Notes: a model not told the origin generated them from the letters alone. A stretch of DNA of 52,941 nucleotides from a bacterium (GCA_017409065.1 JAFQTK010000107.1:1-52941); one strand, 5' to 3'. Positions 1,152-43,574 are shown, numbered from the stretch's first letter. Numbers and translations are program-made.

Positions 1152-1502
1152 ATGCGAGAAATAATCGGATTATTAGTTTTTTTGAGTTTGGCAATTATAG
1201 TGACGATTGTTCTGGTGCATTTGTGTCACAAATTTCCCGAGCCTAAAACCAACGAAAATAAAGATTTAAAAGAAAATATTTTGGATATTTGTTTTCCAGA
1301 AAACAAAAATTTGAACTCTAATATTTTTAAATATGCGATATTCTGTTTGCTTATTTTTCTTTCAATATTTTTGGTTGCACCGGTAGTTTTGACAATTGGT
1401 AAATTTTCTTTCTCATCGATAAGTATAATAATTACGGCTATTTTTGTTATGCTACTGTCAATTTTTTATGCCATTAAAAAGCATATGATAAGGTGGAAAT
1501 AG
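1152..1502 (+). CDS. small 3-TM membrane protein, weakly NuoA/NdhC-like
   Basis: 116 aa and first gene of the A-H-J-K-L-M-N ordered operon. 'FKYAIFCLLIFLSIFLVAP' sits where NuoA has 'FY..A..F.IFDVE..fL.P', and the C-terminus is '..YAIKKHMIRWK'. The acidic residues are absent. This is a by-eye call only. Confidence 0.45.
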   Translation: MREIIGLLVFLSLAIIVTIVLVHLCHKFPEPKTNENKDLKENILDICFPENKNLNSNIFKYAIFCLLIFLSIFLVAPVVLTIGKFSFSSISIIITAIFVMLLSIFYAIKKHMIRWK

Positions 1503-2539
1503 TGGATATAGTATATCAATATTACTTTAATTTTTTAGGGAAATTGGGATTATCAGATGTTTTGATAATCGTTTTGTGGCACATTCTTTTGTTCGGACTT
1601 GCCTGTGTGGCACTTTGTGTAAGTGCTTCACTTTTGATAGTTTTTGAACGTAGCCTTTCAAAATTTTTAAACAAAGGAAATTTTTCTTTTTCAACTACTG
1701 ATTTAGAACAAGAAATTTTTAAATCGCCAAAATATTCGTGCCAAAATATACTCCCAATACTATTTATTATCCCGATTTTGGCTATATGGGGAATAATCCC
1801 ATACAGCAACAAGTATATTCCTGTTGAATCCGATGTTAGCTTGCTTTTATTTTTTCTTTTGATGCTAATTCCAATTATGGGGATTTTATTTGGAGGATAT
1901 TCTACAAAAAATAAAACCATTATTTCGGCATCGGTCAAAACTACCATTGTAGTTCTTAGTTTTGCATTATCCATATTGTTTTCGATTGTTAGTGTAGCTA
2001 CATTGGCATCAAGCTTCAACTTGAATGAAATAATTGCGGCTCAATCATTGAATAAAGGGGCTTTAGGATGGTTTGTTTTTCCTAATATCATTGCTTTTTT
2101 AGTTTTGACAAGCAGTATTTTATTTTTCACCGATTTGTTACTAGGCGGGCTTGTTGACCTAAGATTTTCTATTTTTAATTTATGTTCCGCTAAAATATTG
2201 AAAACAATCGACTTCTTAAAATATGGAGCAATATTTATATTTGCTATTTTTATTGTCTGTTTATTTTTTGGCGGATATTTACCACCATTTGGGTTTTATT
2301 TGAGCGAACTTTACCAAATCAACTATGTTTTAAATACATCTGCCGTATATGTAGAACAAATCTTTTGGCTATTTTTCAAATCAATGTTGGTGGGATGTTC
2401 ATTGATTCTCATAAGATTTTTTCCCCCTGTTTTAGATTATAAAAAATTAGTTAAATATTCTTGCATAATATTGTTGCCCTGTTCTATTTTGAACTTTATA
2501 ATTATTTGTATTATTAAAGGGATTTCAGGAGGAGTATAA
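1493..2539 (+). CDS. nuoH: divergent NuoH/NdhA-like polytopic membrane protein
   Basis: 348 aa. 'FERSLSKF' matches the NuoH N-terminal ERK motif region. 'GGYSTKNKTIISASVKT' matches 'GWaSNSKYallGglRa', and 'SFNLNEIIAAQ' matches 'l.l..Iv.aQ'. The C-terminal part contains 'FFGGYLPPF'. GTG start (1493 or 1502) overlaps the upstream stop. Confidence 0.6.
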   Translation: MEIVDIVYQYYFNFLGKLGLSDVLIIVLWHILLFGLACVALCVSASLLIVFERSLSKFLNKGNFSFSTTDLEQEIFKSPKYSCQNILPILFIIPILAIWGIIPYSNKYIPVESDVSLLLFFLLMLIPIMGILFGGYSTKNKTIISASVKTTIVVLSFALSILFSIVSVATLASSFNLNEIIAAQSLNKGALGWFVFPNIIAFLVLTSSILFFTDLLLGGLVDLRFSIFNLCSAKILKTIDFLKYGAIFIFAIFIVCLFFGGYLPPFGFYLSELYQINYVLNTSAVYVEQIFWLFFKSMLVGCSLILIRFFPPVLDYKKLVKYSCIILLPCSILNFIIICIIKGISGGV

Positions 2540-3066
2540 TGGATATTCTATCAGTTATATTTTTCTATATATTTTCATTTCTGAGTATTGTAGGTTCTAT
2601 CATTGCACTTAACTCAAAAAGTTTTTTAAATGCAATTATGTGGGCAAGTTGCGTATTTGTTACCGTAGGGGGATTTTATATTTTGTTAAATGCTACATTT
2701 AACGCAACTTTGCAAATAGGTGTATGGGGGATTTTAATTCCGATATTTTTAGCAATATCTACATCTTACCTCGACAAACCAGAACAAAATAAAACAAAAT
2801 TCAACATAAAATTTGCAACACCAGCCATTTCGATTGCATTTTTACTTATTTTTATCTTGTTAGGAATTACAAGCAATTATTTTGAAAGATTGTTCGAGGT
2901 TATAACAGGAGATTTAGGTTTAAACCTTGAATATTCATCTCTTGCTATCTTAAGCGAAAATTTGACTCTTAATTATGGATTTTTGATAGTTCTGTTTTTA
3001 ATTGTAGTTTTCCTACTGATTGTAGGTTTAAATTTGATTTCTGTATTTAAAGATAGAGAGGAATAG
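2539..3066 (+). CDS. nuoJ: divergent NuoJ/NdhG-like membrane protein
   Basis: 175 aa. 'SIIALNSKSFLNAIMWASCVFVTVGGFYILLNATFNATLQIGVW' follows the NuoJ N-terminal pattern (..rnpvhsal.L...f...a.l.ll..a.FlA..QvlVY). An aggagg RBS is present, and the TAATG overlaps the H-like stop. Confidence 0.55.
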   Translation: MDILSVIFFYIFSFLSIVGSIIALNSKSFLNAIMWASCVFVTVGGFYILLNATFNATLQIGVWGILIPIFLAISTSYLDKPEQNKTKFNIKFATPAISIAFLLIFILLGITSNYFERLFEVITGDLGLNLEYSSLAILSENLTLNYGFLIVLFLIVVFLLIVGLNLISVFKDREE

Positions 3067-3069
3067 GTT

Positions 3070-3384
3070 ATGGACTTATTGACAAACATAGGACTGTATC
3101 ATTATCTTGTTATAGCTATTTTATTGTTCTGCATCGGTTTGTATGGTTTATTAACCACAAAAAATATTATCAAAACAATTTTTGCTTTGGGCTTAATGTT
3201 GAGTGCAATCGGATTAAACTTCGTGTCTTTTGCTTCTTTTGGCGATTTTAAATCTGTTTCAGGACAATCATTTCAAATATTTTTGGTTATAATAAGCTGC
3301 GTACAAATAATTTTGGCGATAAGTTTTGTCGTTGCAGCTAAAACACTAAAACATAAGAAAATAAAAACGGTTTTTAAAAAATAA
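3070..3384 (+). CDS. nuoK: divergent NuoK/NdhE-like membrane protein
   Basis: 104 aa, 3 TM. 'HYLVIAILLFCIGLYGLLTTKNIIKTIFALGLMLSAIGLNFV' aligns with the NuoK 'yl.l...LF.iG..G.l.rRN.i..lm.lElmlnA.nl.fv' pattern. Confidence 0.65.
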   Translation: MDLLTNIGLYHYLVIAILLFCIGLYGLLTTKNIIKTIFALGLMLSAIGLNFVSFASFGDFKSVSGQSFQIFLVIISCVQIILAISFVVAAKTLKHKKIKTVFKK

Positions 3385-3407
3385 CAGGTGTGAGGATTTA
3401 AACAGAT

Positions 3408-5327
3408 ATGTTAGAAACTTTGGAATATTTTGCAAATAGCATTGTCACAGTGTTGTTTTTACCACTATGGATTATTTTAGTTATATTTTTAAACTCATCA
3501 ATGTCATTTATTGATTCAAAAAAATTGACACTTAATTTATCATTAGGGGGAAGTCTTTTTAGTATAGTATTTGCTGTGCTTTGTATTTTGTACTGCGTAT
3601 CAAATCCAGCAAAAACTGTTGAAAATAATGTTTTATGGCTAAATATTGGGACCCCGATTTATGTTGGTACTTTTATTGATAAATTAAGTTCAATAATGCT
3701 ATTAATCACATCTATTTTTATGTTTTTTATCCAATTATTTACATACAGATTTATCCAAGACGACAAATATTTCCACAAGTTTTATATCCACTTGAACCTT
3801 CTTGCTTTTGCTATTTATGGGTTAATTTTGTCTTCTAATGTTATTCAATCTTTAGCTTTTGCTGGCTTAATAGGTATTTTAGGCTACCTACTGATGATTT
3901 TTAAGTCTGAAGAAATCACATCTGCTCAAGCTGCAAAACAATTTTTAATAACCAATTGTTTTGGAGATATTTGCCTCTTATCAGGAAGTATTGCATTAAT
4001 CTACTTTTCAGCTATTTTCTCATCAGCACAAAATTTGGCATTGCTTTCTTATTCCGGATTTTCTTTTAATGTCGATACATTGTATTCTATGGTATCTGAG
4101 CCTATTTTTTGTACAATCACATTATTTGTTATTATCGGGCTTATGATTAAATCACTACAATTTCCATTCGGGGGAATATGCTTCAAAAACAAAGATATTT
4201 CTGCACATTATTTTATTTTACCGATAATTTTAGGTTCCGTTGGGATATATTTGGCTTACAGATTATATCCAATGATAATTATTTCTAAATTCATCACAAC
4301 AAGCATTGTTATTATCGGCTTAATAACTGCATTTGCATATTCTTTTATATCAATGAGTCAAAATAATTTTAAAAAAATTCTAATAAACATCGCATTTGCA
4401 CAAATTGGGGTTATATTTATGAGCTTAGGACTAGGATTATATTCAAGTTCCGCTCTTATGCTAATTAATTTATTATATTCAATGGCAGCATTATTATTAG
4501 TTGCCAGTTCAGTGACCCAAGCCGTTAATAATCAAGATGATATAAAATTATTAGGCGGTCTGCGAAAAGAACTACCTTTATGTTCAGGAATATTTATTCT
4601 CGGTAGTTTATCTTTGATAATAGGAAACAATTTGCAGAATAATTTGCTTGCAAAGTTAAATGAGTTCGGAAATGATTGGATAATATTTACTTACTTGATT
4701 GTTATATTCCTTTTGGTTTATTCATCAACAAGAATGTATTTATTAGTTTTTGAAAACGAAAAAAGAGCTAATATTGAAGTCAAAAAAATAAGCAAAATAC
4801 AATATTCAGCAATAATAAGTTTCTTAATTCTTGCAATTTCTTTTGTGTTTGCAATAGGGAACAATTTCAAAAAATTTGTATATTTTATTATACCGGAAAA
4901 GACTGTACCGACTGAAAATATAACAATAATTTTAAGTATATTTGTTATTCTATGTGCAAGCTATATAGCATTTAGGTTATATGTGTCACCATTTAATTTG
5001 TTTACTCAAATCAAAGAGAAAATATTGAGCAAAGAAAATTTATTGTACAAGCTTTCATATAATGAATTTTATATAAATGAAATATTAGAGTTTATTGGCA
5101 AAAAAATGCTTCTACCTGTTTGCAAACTGATAAATTTTATAGAAATTTATGTTATTGAAATGTGCGTTTTTCTAATAGCACAAACAACCAAAATTTTTGG
5201 GACAACAGCTTTCAAGCTACAAAACGGAAACACTAAGTCATATTTGGCTCACACTGTTACGATATTGACATTAGTTATTGCCGTTACTGTACTGTTTTAT
5301 GTATATAGCAGTTTAATGGGGGTGTAG
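3408..5327 (+). CDS. nuoL: NuoL/NdhF/MrpA-like antiporter-type subunit
   Basis: 639 aa, many TM segments. 'IIGLMIKSLQFPFGG...GSVGIYLAYRLYP' matches the NuoL TM7-8 pattern 'gA.GKSAQ.PL..WL....AGvyL..R'. The long C-terminal extension is consistent with an L-type lateral helix. Confidence 0.75.
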   Translation: MLETLEYFANSIVTVLFLPLWIILVIFLNSSMSFIDSKKLTLNLSLGGSLFSIVFAVLCILYCVSNPAKTVENNVLWLNIGTPIYVGTFIDKLSSIMLLITSIFMFFIQLFTYRFIQDDKYFHKFYIHLNLLAFAIYGLILSSNVIQSLAFAGLIGILGYLLMIFKSEEITSAQAAKQFLITNCFGDICLLSGSIALIYFSAIFSSAQNLALLSYSGFSFNVDTLYSMVSEPIFCTITLFVIIGLMIKSLQFPFGGICFKNKDISAHYFILPIILGSVGIYLAYRLYPMIIISKFITTSIVIIGLITAFAYSFISMSQNNFKKILINIAFAQIGVIFMSLGLGLYSSSALMLINLLYSMAALLLVASSVTQAVNNQDDIKLLGGLRKELPLCSGIFILGSLSLIIGNNLQNNLLAKLNEFGNDWIIFTYLIVIFLLVYSSTRMYLLVFENEKRANIEVKKISKIQYSAIISFLILAISFVFAIGNNFKKFVYFIIPEKTVPTENITIILSIFVILCASYIAFRLYVSPFNLFTQIKEKILSKENLLYKLSYNEFYINEILEFIGKKMLLPVCKLINFIEIYVIEMCVFLIAQTTKIFGTTAFKLQNGNTKSYLAHTVTILTLVIAVTVLFYVYSSLMGV

Positions 5328-5328
5328 A

Positions 5329-6885
5329 ATGAACTTTTTATCTATATTATTTTTAATTTTTTCACCTGCAATCGTTGCACTACTGTTATTAAGCCCTATT
5401 TTCCCAAACAATAATATTAAAATCAGACGTTTTTCAAAAGGGTTTTCTATAACACATTTTATATACAGTTTGTTATTTTTATTATATTTTAATCCTACAA
5501 ATTTAGGTTGGTCTTACCAAAAAGAATTGACGTTTTTTGGCTCAAGTTGGATAAATACACTTGGAATAAGAGCTAATTTTGGACTGGATGGAATCTCGCT
5601 TGTATTTGTAATTTTAACTTCATTCATTACAATGTTAGCTATAATTGCAGGAAAACGGATGATAAGAACCAAAACAAGAATTTATTATCCGTTAGTTTTA
5701 ATTTTACAAACAGCGGTTTTAGGTGTATTTAGTGCCAAGGATATATTTTTATTCTTGTTTTTCTGGTTGCTTGAACTCATTCCAACATATTTATTAATCA
5801 ATCAATGGGGAGAAAAAACATCAAAATCTGCAGCCACAAAATATGTTATTTGTTCCTTTTTAGGAAGCATGTTCTTGATTTTGGGAATGTTAATTTTATA
5901 TTTTTATAGTTTTACAATAAGTGGTGTACTTACCGCTGATATAGAAAATTTAAGTATGTCTGAAAACGTATTTGCTATGTGGTTTCAAGCGTTTATCTTC
6001 TTCTGTTTCTTGATTGGATTTGCAATTAAATTGCCTATCGTCCCACTTCATACTGCACAATTTACAGCTCAAAACAATTCAATTGCACCGGTAAGTATGC
6101 TGTTATCAGGTCTGCTGATGAACATGGGTGGATATGGCATAATACGATTTAATTTAGGTTTATTTCCGGAAGTCTTTGATAAATTTGCACCTATATTAAT
6201 GATTTTAGGTGGCATAAACATGTTATACTGCACTACATTAGCTTTTATTCAAACTGATATTAAAAAAGTTGTTTCTTTGTACGGGATAGCACAATGCGGG
6301 CTTATTCTACTTGGATTAGGAGCTATGACAGAAGTAGGGTTTGAAGGTAGCATCTTTCATATGATATCAAGAAGCATAATTTCAGCCGGATTGTTTATGC
6401 TGGTAGGTTCTATTTATTTAAGAACAAAAACAACTCAAATATTTACCTTAAGTGGTTTGGGAGAAGTTATGCCTATTTGTAAAAACTTTGGTATAATTAT
6501 TACTCTCGCTGCAATGGGATTGCCGTTTTTAAGCGGATTTGCCGCTAATTTTATTATTCTAAACGGTATTATTTTAAGCGACATTGAACCGCAAGGTTTT
6601 ATCGTCACAATAGGTGCTATTAGTGCGTTAGGTATATTTTTATCCGCAGCTTGCATATTTAGGTTGTTTAATGATACATTTTTAGGTTCGGTAACTTCAA
6701 AATTCAAAAAATTAAATAACAAAGAAAATAATATTGTCATTTTGAGAAAGCCTATTACCAAAACAGAAATAATAGTGTTAGCCTCATTAGCATTAGCTGT
6801 TATGTTTTTGGGAATATTCCCAAATTCTATTTTAGATATATTTAAAGTAACAACAGATGTAATTATAGATTTTATGAAGGTGTAA
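5329..6885 (+). CDS. nuoM: NuoM/NdhD-like antiporter-type subunit
   Basis: 518 aa. 'LFFWLLELIPTYLLI' and 'GFAIKLPIVPLHTAQ....APVSMLLSGLLMNMGGYGIIRF' match the NuoM pattern 'FFWE..LiPmYfLI' / 'a.K.P..PlHtWLPdAH.eAPt..SviLAg.LLK.GgYG.lRf'. Confidence 0.85.
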   Translation: MNFLSILFLIFSPAIVALLLLSPIFPNNNIKIRRFSKGFSITHFIYSLLFLLYFNPTNLGWSYQKELTFFGSSWINTLGIRANFGLDGISLVFVILTSFITMLAIIAGKRMIRTKTRIYYPLVLILQTAVLGVFSAKDIFLFLFFWLLELIPTYLLINQWGEKTSKSAATKYVICSFLGSMFLILGMLILYFYSFTISGVLTADIENLSMSENVFAMWFQAFIFFCFLIGFAIKLPIVPLHTAQFTAQNNSIAPVSMLLSGLLMNMGGYGIIRFNLGLFPEVFDKFAPILMILGGINMLYCTTLAFIQTDIKKVVSLYGIAQCGLILLGLGAMTEVGFEGSIFHMISRSIISAGLFMLVGSIYLRTKTTQIFTLSGLGEVMPICKNFGIIITLAAMGLPFLSGFAANFIILNGIILSDIEPQGFIVTIGAISALGIFLSAACIFRLFNDTFLGSVTSKFKKLNNKENNIVILRKPITKTEIIVLASLALAVMFLGIFPNSILDIFKVTTDVIIDFMKV

Positions 6886-6886
6886 G

Positions 6887-8311
6887 ATGGATTTTTTAGC
6901 AGATATAAGATGGGCCTTTTTACCTGAATTGATAATTATAACTTTTATTTTTATCAGTGCTTTTTTATCATTATTTTTTAACAAAAAATTATATAAGACC
7001 TCACAATGGATAGCCATTTCAGGAATCTTGACTTCTTTTGCATCAATTGGATTTGTCCAAGCTGAACCTACATACTTTGCCTTCAATGGTAGCGTTGTTT
7101 GCAATGTCTATACCGTATTTTTTAAAAGTTTAATTCTTATTGCATCATTTTTTGTAATTTTATTATCAAAAGAAATTGTGAAAAAGAAAAGAGAAAAAGC
7201 TTTTGAATATTTTGCTTTGTTGTATGGGGCAATCCTTGGTTCATTATTGATGGTAGGAGCTAATGATTTTTTAGTCGCTTATTTTGCTTTTGCTTTACTG
7301 GGAATAACAAGTACATTATTAATTGGAGTTCCGCAAAAATATAATACCAAAATAGCAAGCACAAAATTTCTTTTGACTGAAATTTTTGCCTCAAGCATAT
7401 TTTTGTTGGGGGTATCTTATCTTTACATAGTTGTCGGTCAAATGAATTTTGATTCCATATTCTCTGCTTTGAGTGGATATCAAGGCGGATTGCTTTTGGC
7501 TTTGGCACTGATTTTTATAGTAACAGGGATAATGTTTAAAATTTGTGCCACTCCTTTTGCTAATTATGCTCCAGATATTTACAAAGATACAACAGCTCCG
7601 GTAGGTACTTTTTTATCGTTGATTCCTATTATCGCTGGGTTCTCGTTACTCTCCAGAATATTGCTCCTGACATCAGATTTTGTTCCGTTAGTAGGAGTAG
7701 TAGTTTTAATTTATGCATTAATTACAATGTCAGTCGGAGTTTACGGTGCAATAACACAAAACAATATAAAATCATTTATGGGATATAGCACAATGATTCA
7801 AGTAAGTTTTATGTTATTAGTTTTGGGAGTAATTAAACCTTACACACTCTCTGCCTTACTATATTATTTGGTTAGCTATATTTTTATGAATATTGCACTA
7901 TGGGCCGCTGTCATTAACTATAATAAAAATAATATTTCTGATTATACAGGTTTAGCATACAAACGACCATTTTATACATTAGCAGTTATTTTTACGTTAT
8001 TGTCAATGATTGGCTTTCCACCGACTTCAGGGTTTCTAGCCAAGCTTTTTGTAATGTCTGCCGTTACCCGTTTAGGAATTATTTATTTAGTTTTCATACT
8101 AATTATGCTCTTATTAACAGTAGTTGCATTCTTTGCATATTTAAAATTAATAAATACGATGTTTAAAAAAATACCTAACCCTATTATTGAACAAGAAAGA
8201 CCTGTTTTTTCCAAAATTACATTATATTTTTGTTCAGGGATAACAATTTTGCTATGTTTTTATTCAAGCAAAATAATCGAGCTTTGTGAACTTATATCTT
8301 ATTCTCTTTAG
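6887..8311 (+). CDS. nuoN: NuoN/NdhB-like antiporter-type subunit
   Basis: 474 aa. 'GIMFKICATPFANYAPDIYKDTTAPVGTFLSLIPIIAGFSLLSRIL' matches the NuoN pattern 'g.gFK...vPFH.W.PDvY.GaP.pv..fl....K.a.f..l.R'. Confidence 0.8.
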   Translation: MDFLADIRWAFLPELIIITFIFISAFLSLFFNKKLYKTSQWIAISGILTSFASIGFVQAEPTYFAFNGSVVCNVYTVFFKSLILIASFFVILLSKEIVKKKREKAFEYFALLYGAILGSLLMVGANDFLVAYFAFALLGITSTLLIGVPQKYNTKIASTKFLLTEIFASSIFLLGVSYLYIVVGQMNFDSIFSALSGYQGGLLLALALIFIVTGIMFKICATPFANYAPDIYKDTTAPVGTFLSLIPIIAGFSLLSRILLLTSDFVPLVGVVVLIYALITMSVGVYGAITQNNIKSFMGYSTMIQVSFMLLVLGVIKPYTLSALLYYLVSYIFMNIALWAAVINYNKNNISDYTGLAYKRPFYTLAVIFTLLSMIGFPPTSGFLAKLFVMSAVTRLGIIYLVFILIMLLLTVVAFFAYLKLINTMFKKIPNPIIEQERPVFSKITLYFCSGITILLCFYSSKIIELCELISYSL

Positions 8312-8582
8312 GTTGACTTTCTTCAAAATCTTGAATAAGTTTAATTTTCTCTGCTCGGGTCAAAGTTTTTTTAATTCTATATTCTTCTTTTTGAGCTTCT
8401 TGTTTCGTTTCAAACTCTTTAAAATAAGCTATTTTAACTGGCTTGAACGCTCTTGTATATTTTGCTGCTAAACCTTGCTTATGTTTCTCAAATCGTTTTT
8501 CAAGGTCATCAGTATAGCCACAATAATAAGTATTTTTTTCAGTTAATAGAATGTATGTGTAATATTTTTTGTTCATTTTCAA
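8292..8582 (-). CDS. GIY-YIG nuclease superfamily protein (UPF0213/YhbQ-like)
   Basis: 96 aa. 'YYTYILLTEKNTYYCGYTDDLEKRFEKHKQG' is the GIY-YIG motif block, and 'KEFETKQEAQKEEYRIKK' is the conserved Glu region. Confidence 0.85.
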   Translation of the reverse strand: MKMNKKYYTYILLTEKNTYYCGYTDDLEKRFEKHKQGLAAKYTRAFKPVKIAYFKEFETKQEAQKEEYRIKKTLTRAEKIKLIQDFEESQPKENKI

Positions 8583-36704: not shown

Positions 36705-38102
36705 TTATGAATTTTTAATTTTAGCAATAATTTCGTTCACACAGTTTTTAAGCATTACATTCGTTTCCATATCTTCCTTAACTTTTTCATGTGAATAAAT
36801 TATTGTAGGATGCTTTCTTGCAAAAAAATCACCTATTTCATTCAAACTAAAATCCGTTATCTCACGACATACATAAATTGCAACTTGACGAGCATTAGCT
36901 AATTTCTGAGAACGAGTTTGCCCTTTAATATCCTTTGGAGAAAGCTTATAATAATCTGCAACAATATTTAAGACATCATCCAAAGTTATTTGCTTTTCTA
37001 CATCAGAAATATTTAAAATCTGCTTTACGCTATCAATATTTAATTCAATATTACAAACTCCAACATACGCAGTTACTCTGTTGTAAGCCCCTTCTAATTC
37101 TCTAACGTTTTTAGAATATGTTTTTGCCAAAAATTCAACAATTTCTAATGGTAATGTTATTCCGTCATTTTTAGCCAAATTACAAATTATTGCCATTCTT
37201 GTTTCCAAATCAGGCGGTTGTACGTCTACCATCAAGCCCCACTCAAAACGACTTCTTAACCTATCAGGAAGATTTTGAATATATTTTGGCTCTCTGTCAG
37301 ATGTAATTACAATTTGCTTACCTGCATTATGAAGAGCCTCAAACGTATTAAAAATTTCTGTTACGGTTCTTTCTTTTCCTTCAATAAATTGAATGTCATC
37401 AATCAAAAGCACATCAACATTTCTGTATTTTTGCCTAAAGTTGGTCATACTGGCAGATTTGTCCATCCCTTGATGAATAGAAGTTATTAAATCATTAATA
37501 AATTCTTCTGTTTTGACAAATTTAACTTTTAACTCCGGATGATTATACAAAACATAATGCCCAATTGCTTGCATCAAGTGTGTTTTGCCAAGTCCTGCAC
37601 CTCCATATATAAATAAAGGATTATATTTTTCACCAGGAGTTTTTGCTGTTGACATACTCGCTGCGTATGCAAATTTGTTGTTTTCACCAACTACAAAATT
37701 TTCAAACTTATACTTAAGATTAAGTTTTGGTGCAGATTGCATCTTTTTCAAATTGTCATATTTTCCACTTGGATTTTCTTGTGACACCTTCTCAATATTT
37801 TCTTCTCTTGCCAAAAGTTTTTGAAGCTTTTTGTTATGTTTTTGTGCCAATTTTTCATCATAAATAATGTTAAATTCAACCTTTTCACCAATTTCTTTGG
37901 TTAAAATATTTTCTATCAATGCAAAATATTTTTTCAAAATTTGAATAGCAAAAGACTGCCCCGTAAGAACTGAGAACGTACCATTTTCAAAAGCATGAGG
38001 AATTAAGGGTAAAACCCAAGGTTCAAAACTGGAACTTGGAATCTCATTTTTTATTTCCTCTACAACAGAGGACCAAATTTTTTGTACTTCTAGCATGTCC
38101 AT
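36705..38102 (-). CDS. dnaA: chromosomal replication initiator protein DnaA
   Basis: 465 aa. Walker A 'GGAGLGKTHL', 'LLIDDIQF', 'ITSDREP', 'RLRSRFEWGL' and 'NVRELEGA'. The C-terminal DNA-binding domain contains 'ARQVAIYVCREIT' and 'HPTIIYSHEKV'. Confidence 0.95.
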   Translation of the reverse strand: MDMLEVQKIWSSVVEEIKNEIPSSSFEPWVLPLIPHAFENGTFSVLTGQSFAIQILKKYFALIENILTKEIGEKVEFNIIYDEKLAQKHNKKLQKLLAREENIEKVSQENPSGKYDNLKKMQSAPKLNLKYKFENFVVGENNKFAYAASMSTAKTPGEKYNPLFIYGGAGLGKTHLMQAIGHYVLYNHPELKVKFVKTEEFINDLITSIHQGMDKSASMTNFRQKYRNVDVLLIDDIQFIEGKERTVTEIFNTFEALHNAGKQIVITSDREPKYIQNLPDRLRSRFEWGLMVDVQPPDLETRMAIICNLAKNDGITLPLEIVEFLAKTYSKNVRELEGAYNRVTAYVGVCNIELNIDSVKQILNISDVEKQITLDDVLNIVADYYKLSPKDIKGQTRSQKLANARQVAIYVCREITDFSLNEIGDFFARKHPTIIYSHEKVKEDMETNVMLKNCVNEIIAKIKNS

Positions 38103-41033: not shown

Positions 41034-41669
41034 ATGAAAAATATCAAAGAACTTTTGCAAGAATTTAAAGAAAAAGACTATAAAAGTTGTGTAAATCTTC
41101 ATATTCATACAACTTTTTCCGATGGCAAATCAACTCCGGAAGAAATTTTGTCACAAGCCAAAGAGCTAAAAATGAAAAAAATTGCCATATCTGATCATAA
41201 TACAGTAGAGGCTTATTTGCATAACCCAACATTAAAAGATGAAATAGTTATCCCTGCAATAGAGTTTGATTGCTGGTTTATGGGGTGCCTAATTCATATT
41301 CTGGGATATGGGATTGATGTAAATAATCAAGAACTAAAATCTCTATGTGCAAAAACTAAAGCCGGTACCGAAGCTGATATTGTTCGTTTGTTCTCATTCA
41401 GACACCCAAAACAAGTTATAACCGCAATTCACAAGGCAGGTGGGGTAGCGGTTTTGGCTCATCCGGCATGCTATTGGGCTTTTAGTTTAAACACATTAGT
41501 AAAAAGACTTATCAAATTAGGGCTTGACGGAATGGAAGTTTTTTATGAATATCGACGACATAGAAAGATAATAAAATTTCACTCAGAAAAAAAAGTTGCT
41601 CGAATAGCAAAAAAATATAATTTGGTATGTACCGGCGGCACAGATGAACACGGGAGTTTAAAAAAATGA
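41034..41669 (+). CDS. PHP-family metal-dependent phosphoesterase
   Basis: 211 aa. 'NLHIHTTFSDGKSTPEEIL..AKELKMKKIAISDHNTVEA' and later 'AHP' and 'GGTDEHG' are the PHP His/Asp motifs. Confidence 0.8.
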   Translation: MKNIKELLQEFKEKDYKSCVNLHIHTTFSDGKSTPEEILSQAKELKMKKIAISDHNTVEAYLHNPTLKDEIVIPAIEFDCWFMGCLIHILGYGIDVNNQELKSLCAKTKAGTEADIVRLFSFRHPKQVITAIHKAGGVAVLAHPACYWAFSLNTLVKRLIKLGLDGMEVFYEYRRHRKIIKFHSEKKVARIAKKYNLVCTGGTDEHGSLKK

Positions 41670-42664
41670 ATTTATTTAAAACAGCAAAATTTTGGTTTGA
41701 AAATGCTCGCTATCACGCAGTTGCACAAAGTCTATGGGCAGCTGTAACCGCAGTTTGTGTCGCTTTAAACCATTCATCTTTTAATTTGAAATATTCGGTT
41801 TTGGCAGTTATTGGTGTAATATTTGCCCATTTAAGTATAAATTTGCTAGACGATTATTTCGACTTTAAAATAGGAAGTGTGGATAAAAGAAATGAGCTTG
41901 GAAATTCTATCCGCAAAGGAAAATGCAAATATCTAACAGAAGGGAAAACAACTCCCAAACAACTATTTGCCTGTGCATGTATTTTTGGGCTAATTGCGTT
42001 AATTCTGGGTGGAATTTTATTCTATTACAGAGGTTTACCAATATTAATTATCGCATCAATTGCAATAATTTTAGGCTTTTTCTATTCTGCTCCGCCTCTA
42101 AAACTGAGTTACAACGGTTTTGGAGAGCTTGTTGTAGGCTTAATGTTCGGACCTTTATTAATGAACGGTGTTTTTTATTGTGCAACAGGCACAGTAAGCC
42201 TTCAGTTGCTTTTACTTTCCTTTGCCATTGGTTCTCTCGTTACAAACATTGTATATGTTCACTCTATTATGGATATGAAAGCGGATGGTGCTGTTGGAAA
42301 GAAAACACTTGCAGTCCTACTGAAAAAAAATTATTTTAGACTAACTGCCTTGGTATTTTTTGCAATTTATCCATATTGGATTATTGGAACAGGTATTTTA
42401 AGATACAAAATGCCTGAATTACTATGGTTTGTATTTTTAACACTTCCACTAACCGCCGTGTTAGTAAAATTTATGGTGGAATATGTTAATGGAATAAAAA
42501 AAGAACACCAACCCAAATTTTGGATGGGACAATTTGAATGTTGGGACAGAATTAAATCCATTGGTATCGAATGGTTTATGATTCGTTGGTTTTTAGCACG
42601 CAATATAATGGTTTTTTTCAGTATGATTATTTGTGCAGCATACATAGTGACGGCTATCAACTAA
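41666..42664 (+). CDS. UbiA-superfamily prenyltransferase, MenA-like
   Basis: 332 aa, polytopic. First Asp-rich motif 'NLLDDYFDFKIGSVD' and second 'DMKADGAVGKKTLAV'. An ATGA overlap joins it to the PHP gene. Confidence 0.8.
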   Translation: MNLFKTAKFWFENARYHAVAQSLWAAVTAVCVALNHSSFNLKYSVLAVIGVIFAHLSINLLDDYFDFKIGSVDKRNELGNSIRKGKCKYLTEGKTTPKQLFACACIFGLIALILGGILFYYRGLPILIIASIAIILGFFYSAPPLKLSYNGFGELVVGLMFGPLLMNGVFYCATGTVSLQLLLLSFAIGSLVTNIVYVHSIMDMKADGAVGKKTLAVLLKKNYFRLTALVFFAIYPYWIIGTGILRYKMPELLWFVFLTLPLTAVLVKFMVEYVNGIKKEHQPKFWMGQFECWDRIKSIGIEWFMIRWFLARNIMVFFSMIICAAYIVTAIN

Positions 42665-42665
42665 A

Positions 42666-43574
42666 ATGAAAAAATTGTTTTACTTAGCATGGTGGTATTT
42701 TCAAGTTAGGTTTCTGGGCAAAAAGAAACCACTACAAACTGTCCTCTTTATTAATAATGAGTGCAATTTAAGATGCAAACACTGCTGCATAGACAAAGAA
42801 AAACAACAAATTACAAAATCATATGAACAAATTGAAGAAGAACTGAAATATTCTTACAACTTAGGTTCAAGATTTGTTGATTTTGAAGGTGGCGAACCCA
42901 CATTATGGAAAGATAACGAAAAAAATATAAACGATTTGATTTTATTGGCAAAAAAAATAGGATTTTTTTCAACAACAGTTACTACTAATGCACAAAATGA
43001 TTTTTCATGGCTAAATGCAGATTCAATTTGGGTTAGCATTGACGGATTCAAAGAAAGTCACGACCTAATTCGTGGCAAAGGAAGTTTTGCCAAAGCAGTT
43101 GAAAATATTACAAAATACGGGGAATCAGGGAAAAAAAGCCTTTCTATAAACATGGTTGTTAATAAACTAAATGAAAATTCCGTTGAACAAACAATAAATT
43201 TTGCAAAACAAAACCCATACATTCGCTCAATTTCTCTAAACTTTCACATGCCATATTTTGGTACAGAAAATCTTTGTGTTGATGACAGAGATAAAATTTT
43301 AGACAAAATAATATCAATGAAAAAACATAATTATCCAATAATGAATACTTTTTCAGGTCTAAAGGCACTAAAAACTCCACAAAATCATAAATATTGTTGG
43401 ATTACTAATTTTATTATGCCTGATGGAAAAAAAGAAAATATGTGCCAAGGAGCAAAAAATAATTTGTGCCAAATATGTGGTCTTGGAATGGCAACAGAGA
43501 TGAAAAACCTTTATAGATTTAACTTTGAAACCATTTTAGCAGGAATTAAACTTCGCTTATTTAAAAATATATAG
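42666..43574 (+). CDS. radical SAM enzyme, unknown substrate
   Basis: 302 aa. CxxxCxxC 'CNLRCKHCC', 'FEGGEPTL' (SAM-binding GGE), and a Cys-containing C-terminal region 'CWITN...MCQGAKNNLCQICG'. It starts 2 nt after the prenyltransferase stop. Confidence 0.8.
   Translation: MKKLFYLAWWYFQVRFLGKKKPLQTVLFINNECNLRCKHCCIDKEKQQITKSYEQIEEELKYSYNLGSRFVDFEGGEPTLWKDNEKNINDLILLAKKIGFFSTTVTTNAQNDFSWLNADSIWVSIDGFKESHDLIRGKGSFAKAVENITKYGESGKKSLSINMVVNKLNENSVEQTINFAKQNPYIRSISLNFHMPYFGTENLCVDDRDKILDKIISMKKHNYPIMNTFSGLKALKTPQNHKYCWITNFIMPDGKKENMCQGAKNNLCQICGLGMATEMKNLYRFNFETILAGIKLRLFKNI

Follow-up and report, generated by a model that had tools for sequence, protein, structure and literature searches.

What becomes of the membrane arm of complex I once its redox module is gone? 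Complex I is thought to stem from an Mrp-like antiporter joined to a soluble hydrogenase-type module, and how its membrane arm is driven is still debated. The question is raised by a 52,941-nucleotide (nt) contig of a metagenome-derived Gastranaerophilales (Melainabacteria) bacterium (GCA_017409065.1, JAFQTK010000107.1; this whole stretch of DNA is referred to here as the window). Seven consecutive, tightly spaced open reading frames (ORFs) occupy positions 1152-8311 on its + strand, and by sequence and fold they are homologous to the membrane subunits of complex I, arranged in nuo order as A-H-J-K-L-M-N (single letters denote the corresponding Nuo subunits throughout). Our analysis gives good support to the view that this locus is an orphaned complex I membrane arm, and neither a redox-driven pump nor a cluster of pseudogenes. 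A redox-driven pump is rejected because the locus has no iron-sulfur or quinone module and because the NuoH/NuoA cavity and the E-channel carboxylates have been erased. The membrane arm appears instead to have taken on a non-respiratory role. The genes of the operon and the features that flank it are:

1152-1502, + strand: NuoA/ND3-like gene, 116 amino acids (aa), three transmembrane (TM) helices; YECG loop and FDxE motif gone
1502-2539, + strand: NuoH/ND1-like gene, 345 aa; NuoH fold retained, TM1-2 and TM5-6 quinone-cavity loops and E-channel Glu gone
2539-3066, + strand: NuoJ/ND6-like gene, 175 aa; TM3 Tyr replaced by Trp, TM5 Glu gone
3070-3384, + strand: NuoK/ND4L-like gene, 104 aa; TM2 Glu replaced by Gly, TM3 Glu by Gln
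3408-5327, + strand: NuoL/ND5-like gene, 639 aa, with a C-terminal lateral-helix region
5329-6885, + strand: NuoM/ND4-like gene, 518 aa; the best conserved of the seven subunits
6887-8311, + strand: NuoN/ND2-like gene, 474 aa; TM7 and TM12 Lys retained, TM5 Glu and TM8 Lys gone
759-1151, no strand assigned: intergenic control region, strongly conserved, with two hairpins and a -10-like TATAAT
570-758, - strand: RHH_1 (CopG-type) gene, 62 aa, divergent from the operon; Pfam RHH_1 6.9e-7
8292-8582, - strand: GIY-YIG gene, convergent with the N gene

Mapping of the ORFs reproduced the layout given in a preliminary description of this DNA, which had been drawn up by eye. The A and H genes overlap at TAGTG and H and J meet at TAATG, followed by gaps of 3 nt between J and K, 23 nt between K and L, and 1 nt at both L/M and M/N. 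The H gene most likely begins at the GTG at 1502, which matches the orthologue start MDI(L/V)YQ, with an alternative GTG at 1493. That 7.1 kb remains open in AT-rich DNA had been singled out in the same description, and the calculation agrees: about 182 stops would be expected in 2381 random codons of the same composition, and all seven ORFs are uninterrupted. The flanking RHH regulator gene and convergent GIY-YIG gene are likewise both present. The GIY-YIG gene overlaps the 3′ end of N by 20 nt (8292-8311), as it does in L004, L089, and L091. L016 likewise preserves the GIY-YIG/Dus/TPR/acyltransferase synteny.

Profile searches against Pfam and NCBIfam uphold the proposed subunit identities, with A marginal and J under the cut-off. 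H matches NADHdh (2e-23) and K matches Oxidored_q2 (4.7e-14), while L, M, and N all match Proton_antipo_M (1e-17, 5e-52, and 4e-44, respectively) and have NuoL, NuoM, and NuoN as their top NCBIfam models. J reaches Oxidored_q3 at 5.6e-7, which is under Pfam's own cut-off. A has only a marginal NCBIfam NuoA match (E=1e-3) and was placed through alignment to clade orthologues that themselves match Oxidored_q4. M is the sole subunit above a curated equivalog cut-off (TIGR01972, 378 bits), and most other scores lie far below theirs.

The relatives of this locus reveal how it arose. A profile search with the H protein against GTDB species-representative genomes returned 80 loci, mostly assigned to Gastranaerophilales, Melainabacteria, Vampirovibrio, or non-photosynthetic Cyanobacteria, and these were probed with the eleven proteins of L006, a full-operon relative. 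A contiguous 11-gene operon, nuoABCDHIJKLMN without nuoEFG, is present at 76 of the 80 species loci. The other four (L009, L010, L011, and L016) are reduced to A-H-J-K-L-M-N, and so are a JGI locus (L091) and the operon of the window's own species. In tblastn searches the B, C, D, and I proteins of L006 found all four genes in the 76 full-operon loci, unless a short contig ended within the operon, and had no match at any reduced-operon locus or anywhere in the 52.9-kb window, which extends the earlier remark that the cluster itself holds no peripheral-arm gene. A adjoins H and H adjoins J in the reduced operons; the deletions of nuoBCD and nuoI were therefore clean.

A neighbor-joining tree of M and N unites the reduced operons in a single clade (50/50 bootstraps), nested next to the full-operon lineages L013, L014, L019, and L043. 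The best matches of K, M, N, L, and H among solved structures are the cyanobacterial NdhE, NdhD, NdhB, NdhF, and NdhA, respectively. These two observations argue for vertical descent rather than import, and it is well supported that the operon derives from the melainabacterial 11-subunit enzyme, the ancestor of this sub-clade having deleted nuoBCD and nuoI. A horizontal origin from the partial operon of Actinobacteria, whose sequences are not among the taxa of the tree, was considered and rejected, as the operon is closest to full operons of Gastranaerophilales and its subunits match cyanobacterial Ndh structures best. An assembly artefact was also rejected, as the same architecture recurs in ENA, Logan, JGI, and NCBI assemblies of different samples. 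Several metagenome-assembled genomes (MAGs) in this set (L016, L020, L034, L035, and L046) are titled 'uncultured Muribaculaceae' or 'uncultured Acinetobacter' despite carrying typical melainabacterial nuo operons, and are probably mislabeled.

How much of the complex I machinery survives in the remaining subunits? Each subunit was aligned to about 70 full-operon relatives, with the register anchored on solved structures, and 43 canonical functional positions were scored, each at least 93% conserved among the full-operon set. The window and L011 each retain 11 of the 43. L094, which belongs to a second reduced lineage described below, retains 13/43, and the less degenerate L009, L091, and L016 retain 22/43, 23/43, and 24/43; L010 retains 0/23. 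A comparison with sister full operons at near-invariant positions gives 41% versus 86-91% for H, 43% versus 84-93% for L, 66% versus 84-91% for M, and 63% versus 75-79% for N, the window being the lower in each pair. The alignments to solved-structure sequences exclude the objection that the by-eye comparison had been read in the wrong register, and with 11/43 positions left its broader conclusion stands: the chemistry of a classical NADH:quinone oxidoreductase is largely gone.

The YECG loop of NuoA and two loops of NuoH build the quinone cavity and touch NuoB and NuoD. The NuoH TM1-2 loop (RKGPNRVG..QxxAD..KE), the NuoH TM5-6 loop (NRxPFDLPEAESEL..GYxTEYSG), and the NuoA YECG loop are 99-100% conserved in full-operon relatives, and every reduced species is without all three. 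Loss of the TM5-6 loop of H and of the FDxE motif of A had been noted by eye; the alignments confirm both losses and add to them the TM1-2 loop of H and the YECG loop of A. The E-channel carboxylates of the window have all been replaced: the two membrane Glu of K by Gly and Gln (an earlier reading that alignment to NdhE, 6hum_E, and to the family now verifies), the TM4 and TM6 Glu of H by Ala and Lys, those of the FDxE motif of A by Phe and Ser, and the TM5 Glu of J by Val.

The antiporter-like subunits L, M, and N have lost most of their relay residues. In the window the TM5 Glu is missing from L, from M at its canonical position, and from N, and it is present in L009, L016, and L091. The TM8 Lys/His is gone from all three subunits and the TM12 residue from L and M, while all three retain the TM7 Lys and N also its TM12 Lys. 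L has thus lost its TM5 Glu, TM8 His, TM11 Lys, and TM12 Lys and retains its TM6 Asp and TM7 Lys; in M, WLPDAH has become AQFTAQ and the TM8 Lys and TM12 Glu have both become Asn, with the TM7 Lys in place. For L and N, structure and family alignments agree with the preliminary description in finding the TM5 Glu gone and the TM7 Lys kept. For M, the retained TM7 Lys and the altered WLPDAH motif were read correctly, but the TM5 Glu has not been displaced by two positions as was proposed: the family motif WELELIP holds two Glu, and the WLLELIP of the window has lost the canonical first and retains the second. Common to all reduced lineages, including L094, are the TM6 Asp of L, the TM7 Lys of L and M, the second WELE Glu of M, and the SKEA Lys of N. 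Judged by its cavity loops, E-channel carboxylates, and antiporter relay, the window operon does not qualify as a functional complex I.

A profile of the loop-less H proteins, searched against 1.84 billion representative proteins, recovered further loop-less H proteins of the melainabacterial type. In L092/L093 and L094 they again lie within A-H-J-K-L-M-N operons, in a different genomic context with a TPR gene upstream and no RHH gene. The L094 operon (GCA_024695865.1, JAILHI010000039, 9625-16262) groups with the full-operon L046 and with the window's clade in 0/50 bootstraps, so the peripheral-arm genes seem to have been lost at least twice. Several substitutions in the L094 lineage converge with those of the window's clade, for example the change of the M TM8 Lys to Asn. 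The L subunit is about 479 aa long in both L011 (11867-13306) and L094 (11859-13295). An internal deletion has removed roughly TM12-15 from the L011 protein, which retains its C-terminal anchor helix, and the L094 protein has no Pfam match. Loop-less NuoH in other phyla was a candidate that did not hold: a first regular-expression screen flagged about 30 of 150 representatives, and on alignment most of the non-melainabacterial ones proved canonical, the search pattern having been too strict.

Intermediates of this decay are also found. Partly degenerate H proteins (P0072 and P0077) sit in operons where the peripheral arm is still encoded: L096 (6555-16634), with all 11 genes, and L095 (135-8364), which is cut upstream of nuoD. 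In both, the NuoH TM1-2 loop is gone. The quinone-site His of NuoD is replaced by Arg in L096 and by Gln in L095, where the Tyr is gone as well, and NuoB of L096 retains its cluster cysteines together with 55/99 near-invariant positions. Since NuoD is already degenerate in these operons that still have a peripheral arm, quinone-site decay can, on this sequence comparison, precede gene loss. Such early decay fits the report that the genomes of gut Melainabacteria are without quinones and respiratory chains (PMC3787301). The K and I proteins of L096 are enlarged, at 165 and 161 aa.

The reduced operon remains under selection. The ratio of non-synonymous to synonymous substitution rates (dN/dS), calculated by the Nei-Gojobori method between the window and the 97%-identical relative L089, is 0.027 for M, 0.04 for J, 0.057 for N, 0.115 for H, 0.18 for L, and 0.40 for A, compared with 0.022 for the flanking Dus gene. 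Purifying selection, which the open frames had been taken to indicate, is thereby borne out for H, J, L, M, and N (0.03-0.18). Neither mark of a pseudogene is present: dN/dS spans 0.03-0.40 rather than lying near 1, and no stops or frameshifts interrupt the operon across at least eight independent assemblies spanning deep divergence. Between the window and L009, amino-acid identity is 86% for Dus and 73% for the TPR protein, 65% for M and 58% for N, and only 31-39% for A, H, J, K, and L. This split, set against conserved neighbors, indicates that constraint after the loss was strongly relaxed or redirected on A-H-J-K-L and stayed high on M and N. Synonymous divergence between the window and L089 varies greatly from gene to gene: it is 0 for K and for the RHH gene, 0.03 for N, and 0.17 for A. 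Such a pattern suggests that the locus has recombined recently.

An AlphaFold2 model of H (predicted TM-score 0.75) contains eight transmembrane helices and superimposes on NdhA (6khj_A) with a Foldseek TM-score of 0.76. Its low-confidence stretches coincide with the former sites of the two quinone-site loops. The most conserved segment of H in the clade (residues ~252-290) is the TM6-7 loop, which the topology parity of the model places on the outer side. A new cytoplasmic docking surface on H was therefore rejected, as this clade-specific conserved block lies opposite the former Q-module side.

The window's clade has also acquired a distinctive upstream region. The RHH gene stands upstream of every reduced operon in this clade, with 94-100% amino-acid identity, and was found neither in the examined flanks of the 76 full-operon loci nor in the second reduced lineage. 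Between this gene and the operon, the 393-bp control region (759-1151) shows 71-87% pairwise identity among six species whose synonymous sites are saturated (62-83% different). Long invariant blocks run through it; GTATAATAAAAT at 1095-1106 is invariant and encloses the -10-like TATAAT (1096-1101). Three base pairs of the hairpins at 823-839 and 846-862 carry compensatory double changes, and the second hairpin is followed by a T-run, as in a terminator. This hairpin resembles a + strand terminator, yet the sole gene to its left is on the - strand. No Rfam family matched the window or the control region, and promoter and terminator scans of the operon did not rise above the shuffled background except at hairpin 846-862. 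The neighboring RHH protein, near-invariant and of repressor type, probably governs expression of the operon together with this control region.

The remainder of the window is ordinary chromosome, with genes for DnaA, AdhE, AddAB-like nucleases, SLH proteins, and TPR proteins, and no hydrogenase, MrpE/F/G, or iron-sulfur module was found in the rest of its 52.9 kb. The presence of a DnaA gene (36705-38102) shows the window to be chromosomal, and it possibly lies near the replication origin; the cumulative GC skew falls over 26-38 kb. At 41034-43574, a PHP-domain gene, a UbiA-family prenyltransferase gene, and a radical-SAM gene follow one another in tandem. With 107 bits where the cut-off is 264, the prenyltransferase resembles MenA only weakly, and such a gene could bear on prenylated naphthoquinone synthesis in a supposedly quinone-less lineage.

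What, then, might the remaining subunits do? The reading that we favor, at a confidence just short of even, is that the orphaned arm is kept as a redox-independent complex with residual ion handling centered on M and N. The seven subunits would continue to fold and to form a membrane complex, which selection would maintain for a redox-independent job. Our best guess for that job is residual ion conduction or exchange, in the manner of a stripped-down, Mrp-like secondary transporter. The strongly constrained M-N pair would form its core, and the working residues would be the TM7 Lys of L and M, the second WELE Glu of M, the TM6 Asp of L, and the SKEA Lys of N, with the TM7 and TM12 Lys of N additionally available in the window. 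The less degenerate L009, L016, and L091 could still run canonical antiporter-type chemistry, and the window's branch would be a further-remodeled version of their type. Somewhat more tentatively, we propose that gut Melainabacteria, on at least two independent occasions after loss of the redox module, co-opted the arm for a new non-respiratory function, as an ion transporter of a novel kind or an organizer of the envelope or membrane, with a reduced set of convergently retained residues and, in one clade, dedicated RHH control through a structured, ultra-conserved control region.

Several points weigh against this reading. The L, M, and N subunits of the window are without the TM5 Glu, L and M without the TM8 and TM12 ionizable residues, and K without both of its Glu. 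Complex I and Mrp are considered unable to work without the TM5/TM8/TM12 relay residues and the K Glu, and canonical proton transfer is accordingly improbable in the window's complex. Assembly of the seven subunits is an assumption, the neighbor-joining trees contain long branches, and the search for B, C, D, and I covered the 52.9-kb window and flanks of up to 10 kb in the relatives.

The loss of most proton-relay residues from the window and L011 (11/43 retained) would fit a structural complex that carries no ions and organizes the membrane or envelope, or assists the stability of another assembly. Such a scaffold would also accommodate the selection that is still strong along the entire length of M and N, and a most conserved H segment (~252-290) that faces the outer side, not the channel, in the model. 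We nevertheless consider it unlikely. Some 2400 residues and at least 60 transmembrane helices would be a costly scaffold, no partner is evident in the neighborhood, and two independent lineages retain the same few ionizable residues, which suggests that those residues still matter. Less probable again is a docking platform for an unlinked, non-canonical module. Gut Melainabacteria are reported to encode a possible module of this kind, a six-subunit NiFe-hydrogenase-like complex without hydrogen-binding motifs (PMC3787301), and the relatives of complex I are modular (PMC4453560). However, the cytoplasmic docking loops of H and A are deleted or vary in length and sequence among the reduced species, those of H model at low confidence, the signal-transmitting E-channel is erased, and no candidate partner gene is linked at any locus or within the window.

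The two remaining explanations both merit very little belief. An ordinary split nuo locus, in which nuoB, C, D, and I lay at another site of the genome and the enzyme still worked as a redox-driven pump, would have a parallel in the scattered ndh genes of Cyanobacteria, and inspection spanned 52.9 kb of the genome and flanks of about 10 kb in the relatives. Yet all 76 full-operon relatives keep their 11 genes contiguous, the window holds no B, C, D, or I, and the NuoH loops, the NuoA YECG loop, and most E-channel carboxylates are gone, against 99-100% conservation in the full-operon relatives; with every Q-module contact of H and A erased, a split locus becomes highly improbable. A decaying relic on its way to pseudogenes, to which we assign a similarly slight chance, would explain why A, H, J, K, and L evolve fast (31-39% identity while Dus stands at 86%), why canonical residues are eroded, the internal deletions of L in L011 and L094, and the dN/dS of 0.40 for A. 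It is hard to reconcile with 7.1 kb of AT-rich DNA free of stops and frameshifts in at least eight assemblies, with dN/dS of 0.03-0.18 for H, J, L, M, and N, and with an architecture retained twice independently.

The reduced lineages amount to a natural reverse experiment: the redox module has apparently been discarded twice and the arm kept under purifying selection, with most of its "essential" charged residues replaced. An active complex would show what the arm is capable of on its own and which residues are truly indispensable, while a structural one would be a rare conversion of a bioenergetic machine into a scaffold. Full operons with a degenerate quinone site, reduced operons with relay residues, and reduced operons without them offer a comparative series for the study of coupling, and the locus bears on the energy metabolism of the quinone-less gut Melainabacteria.

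The direct ancestor of this operon is the 11-subunit NDH-1 of Melainabacteria and Cyanobacteria, which sister lineages still hold in full and in which the order of the retained genes is alike. In contrast to that enzyme, the window is without NuoB, C, D, and I, its quinone cavity and E-channel are erased, and 11/43 canonical residues are left, while its clade has gained the RHH gene and the conserved control region. The Mrp antiporter offers the obvious functional analogy, as a complex of NuoL/M/N-like and NuoK-like subunits that is redox-independent, as we propose for the reduced arm. Among the structural and sequence matches of the locus proteins, Mrp chains rank with the weaker ones, and all the best profile matches are Nuo/Ndh. 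The locus is without MrpB/E/F/G, has homologues of NuoH, NuoA, and NuoJ instead, and no Mrp small-subunit family matched its proteins or the rest of the window. Unlike in MrpA and MrpD, where they are required, the TM5 Glu/TM7 Lys pairs are broken in the window.

Partial nuo operons without nuoEFG are common (PMC4453560), and a study of melainabacterial complex I noted only MAGs with few complex I genes (PMC8235220). Our literature search, with most subscription journals outside its reach, turned up no membrane-arm-only operon described for Melainabacteria. A seven-gene nuoAHJKLMN partial NDH-1 operon is known from marine Actinobacteria (Salinispora, Streptomyces, and Kocuria), where it accompanies a complete nuoA-N as an additional copy, presumably gained by horizontal transfer, and where ion pumping has been proposed from genomics only (PMC3314556, PMC6676996). 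The window operon has the same gene content and order, likewise without any peripheral-arm gene, but it formed in place, when genes were deleted from the operon native to its lineage. Relative to these known systems, the new elements are this in-place origin, the convergence of two lineages, and the graded intermediates, together with the erosion of canonical residues under continuing purifying selection and a dedicated RHH gene with its control region.

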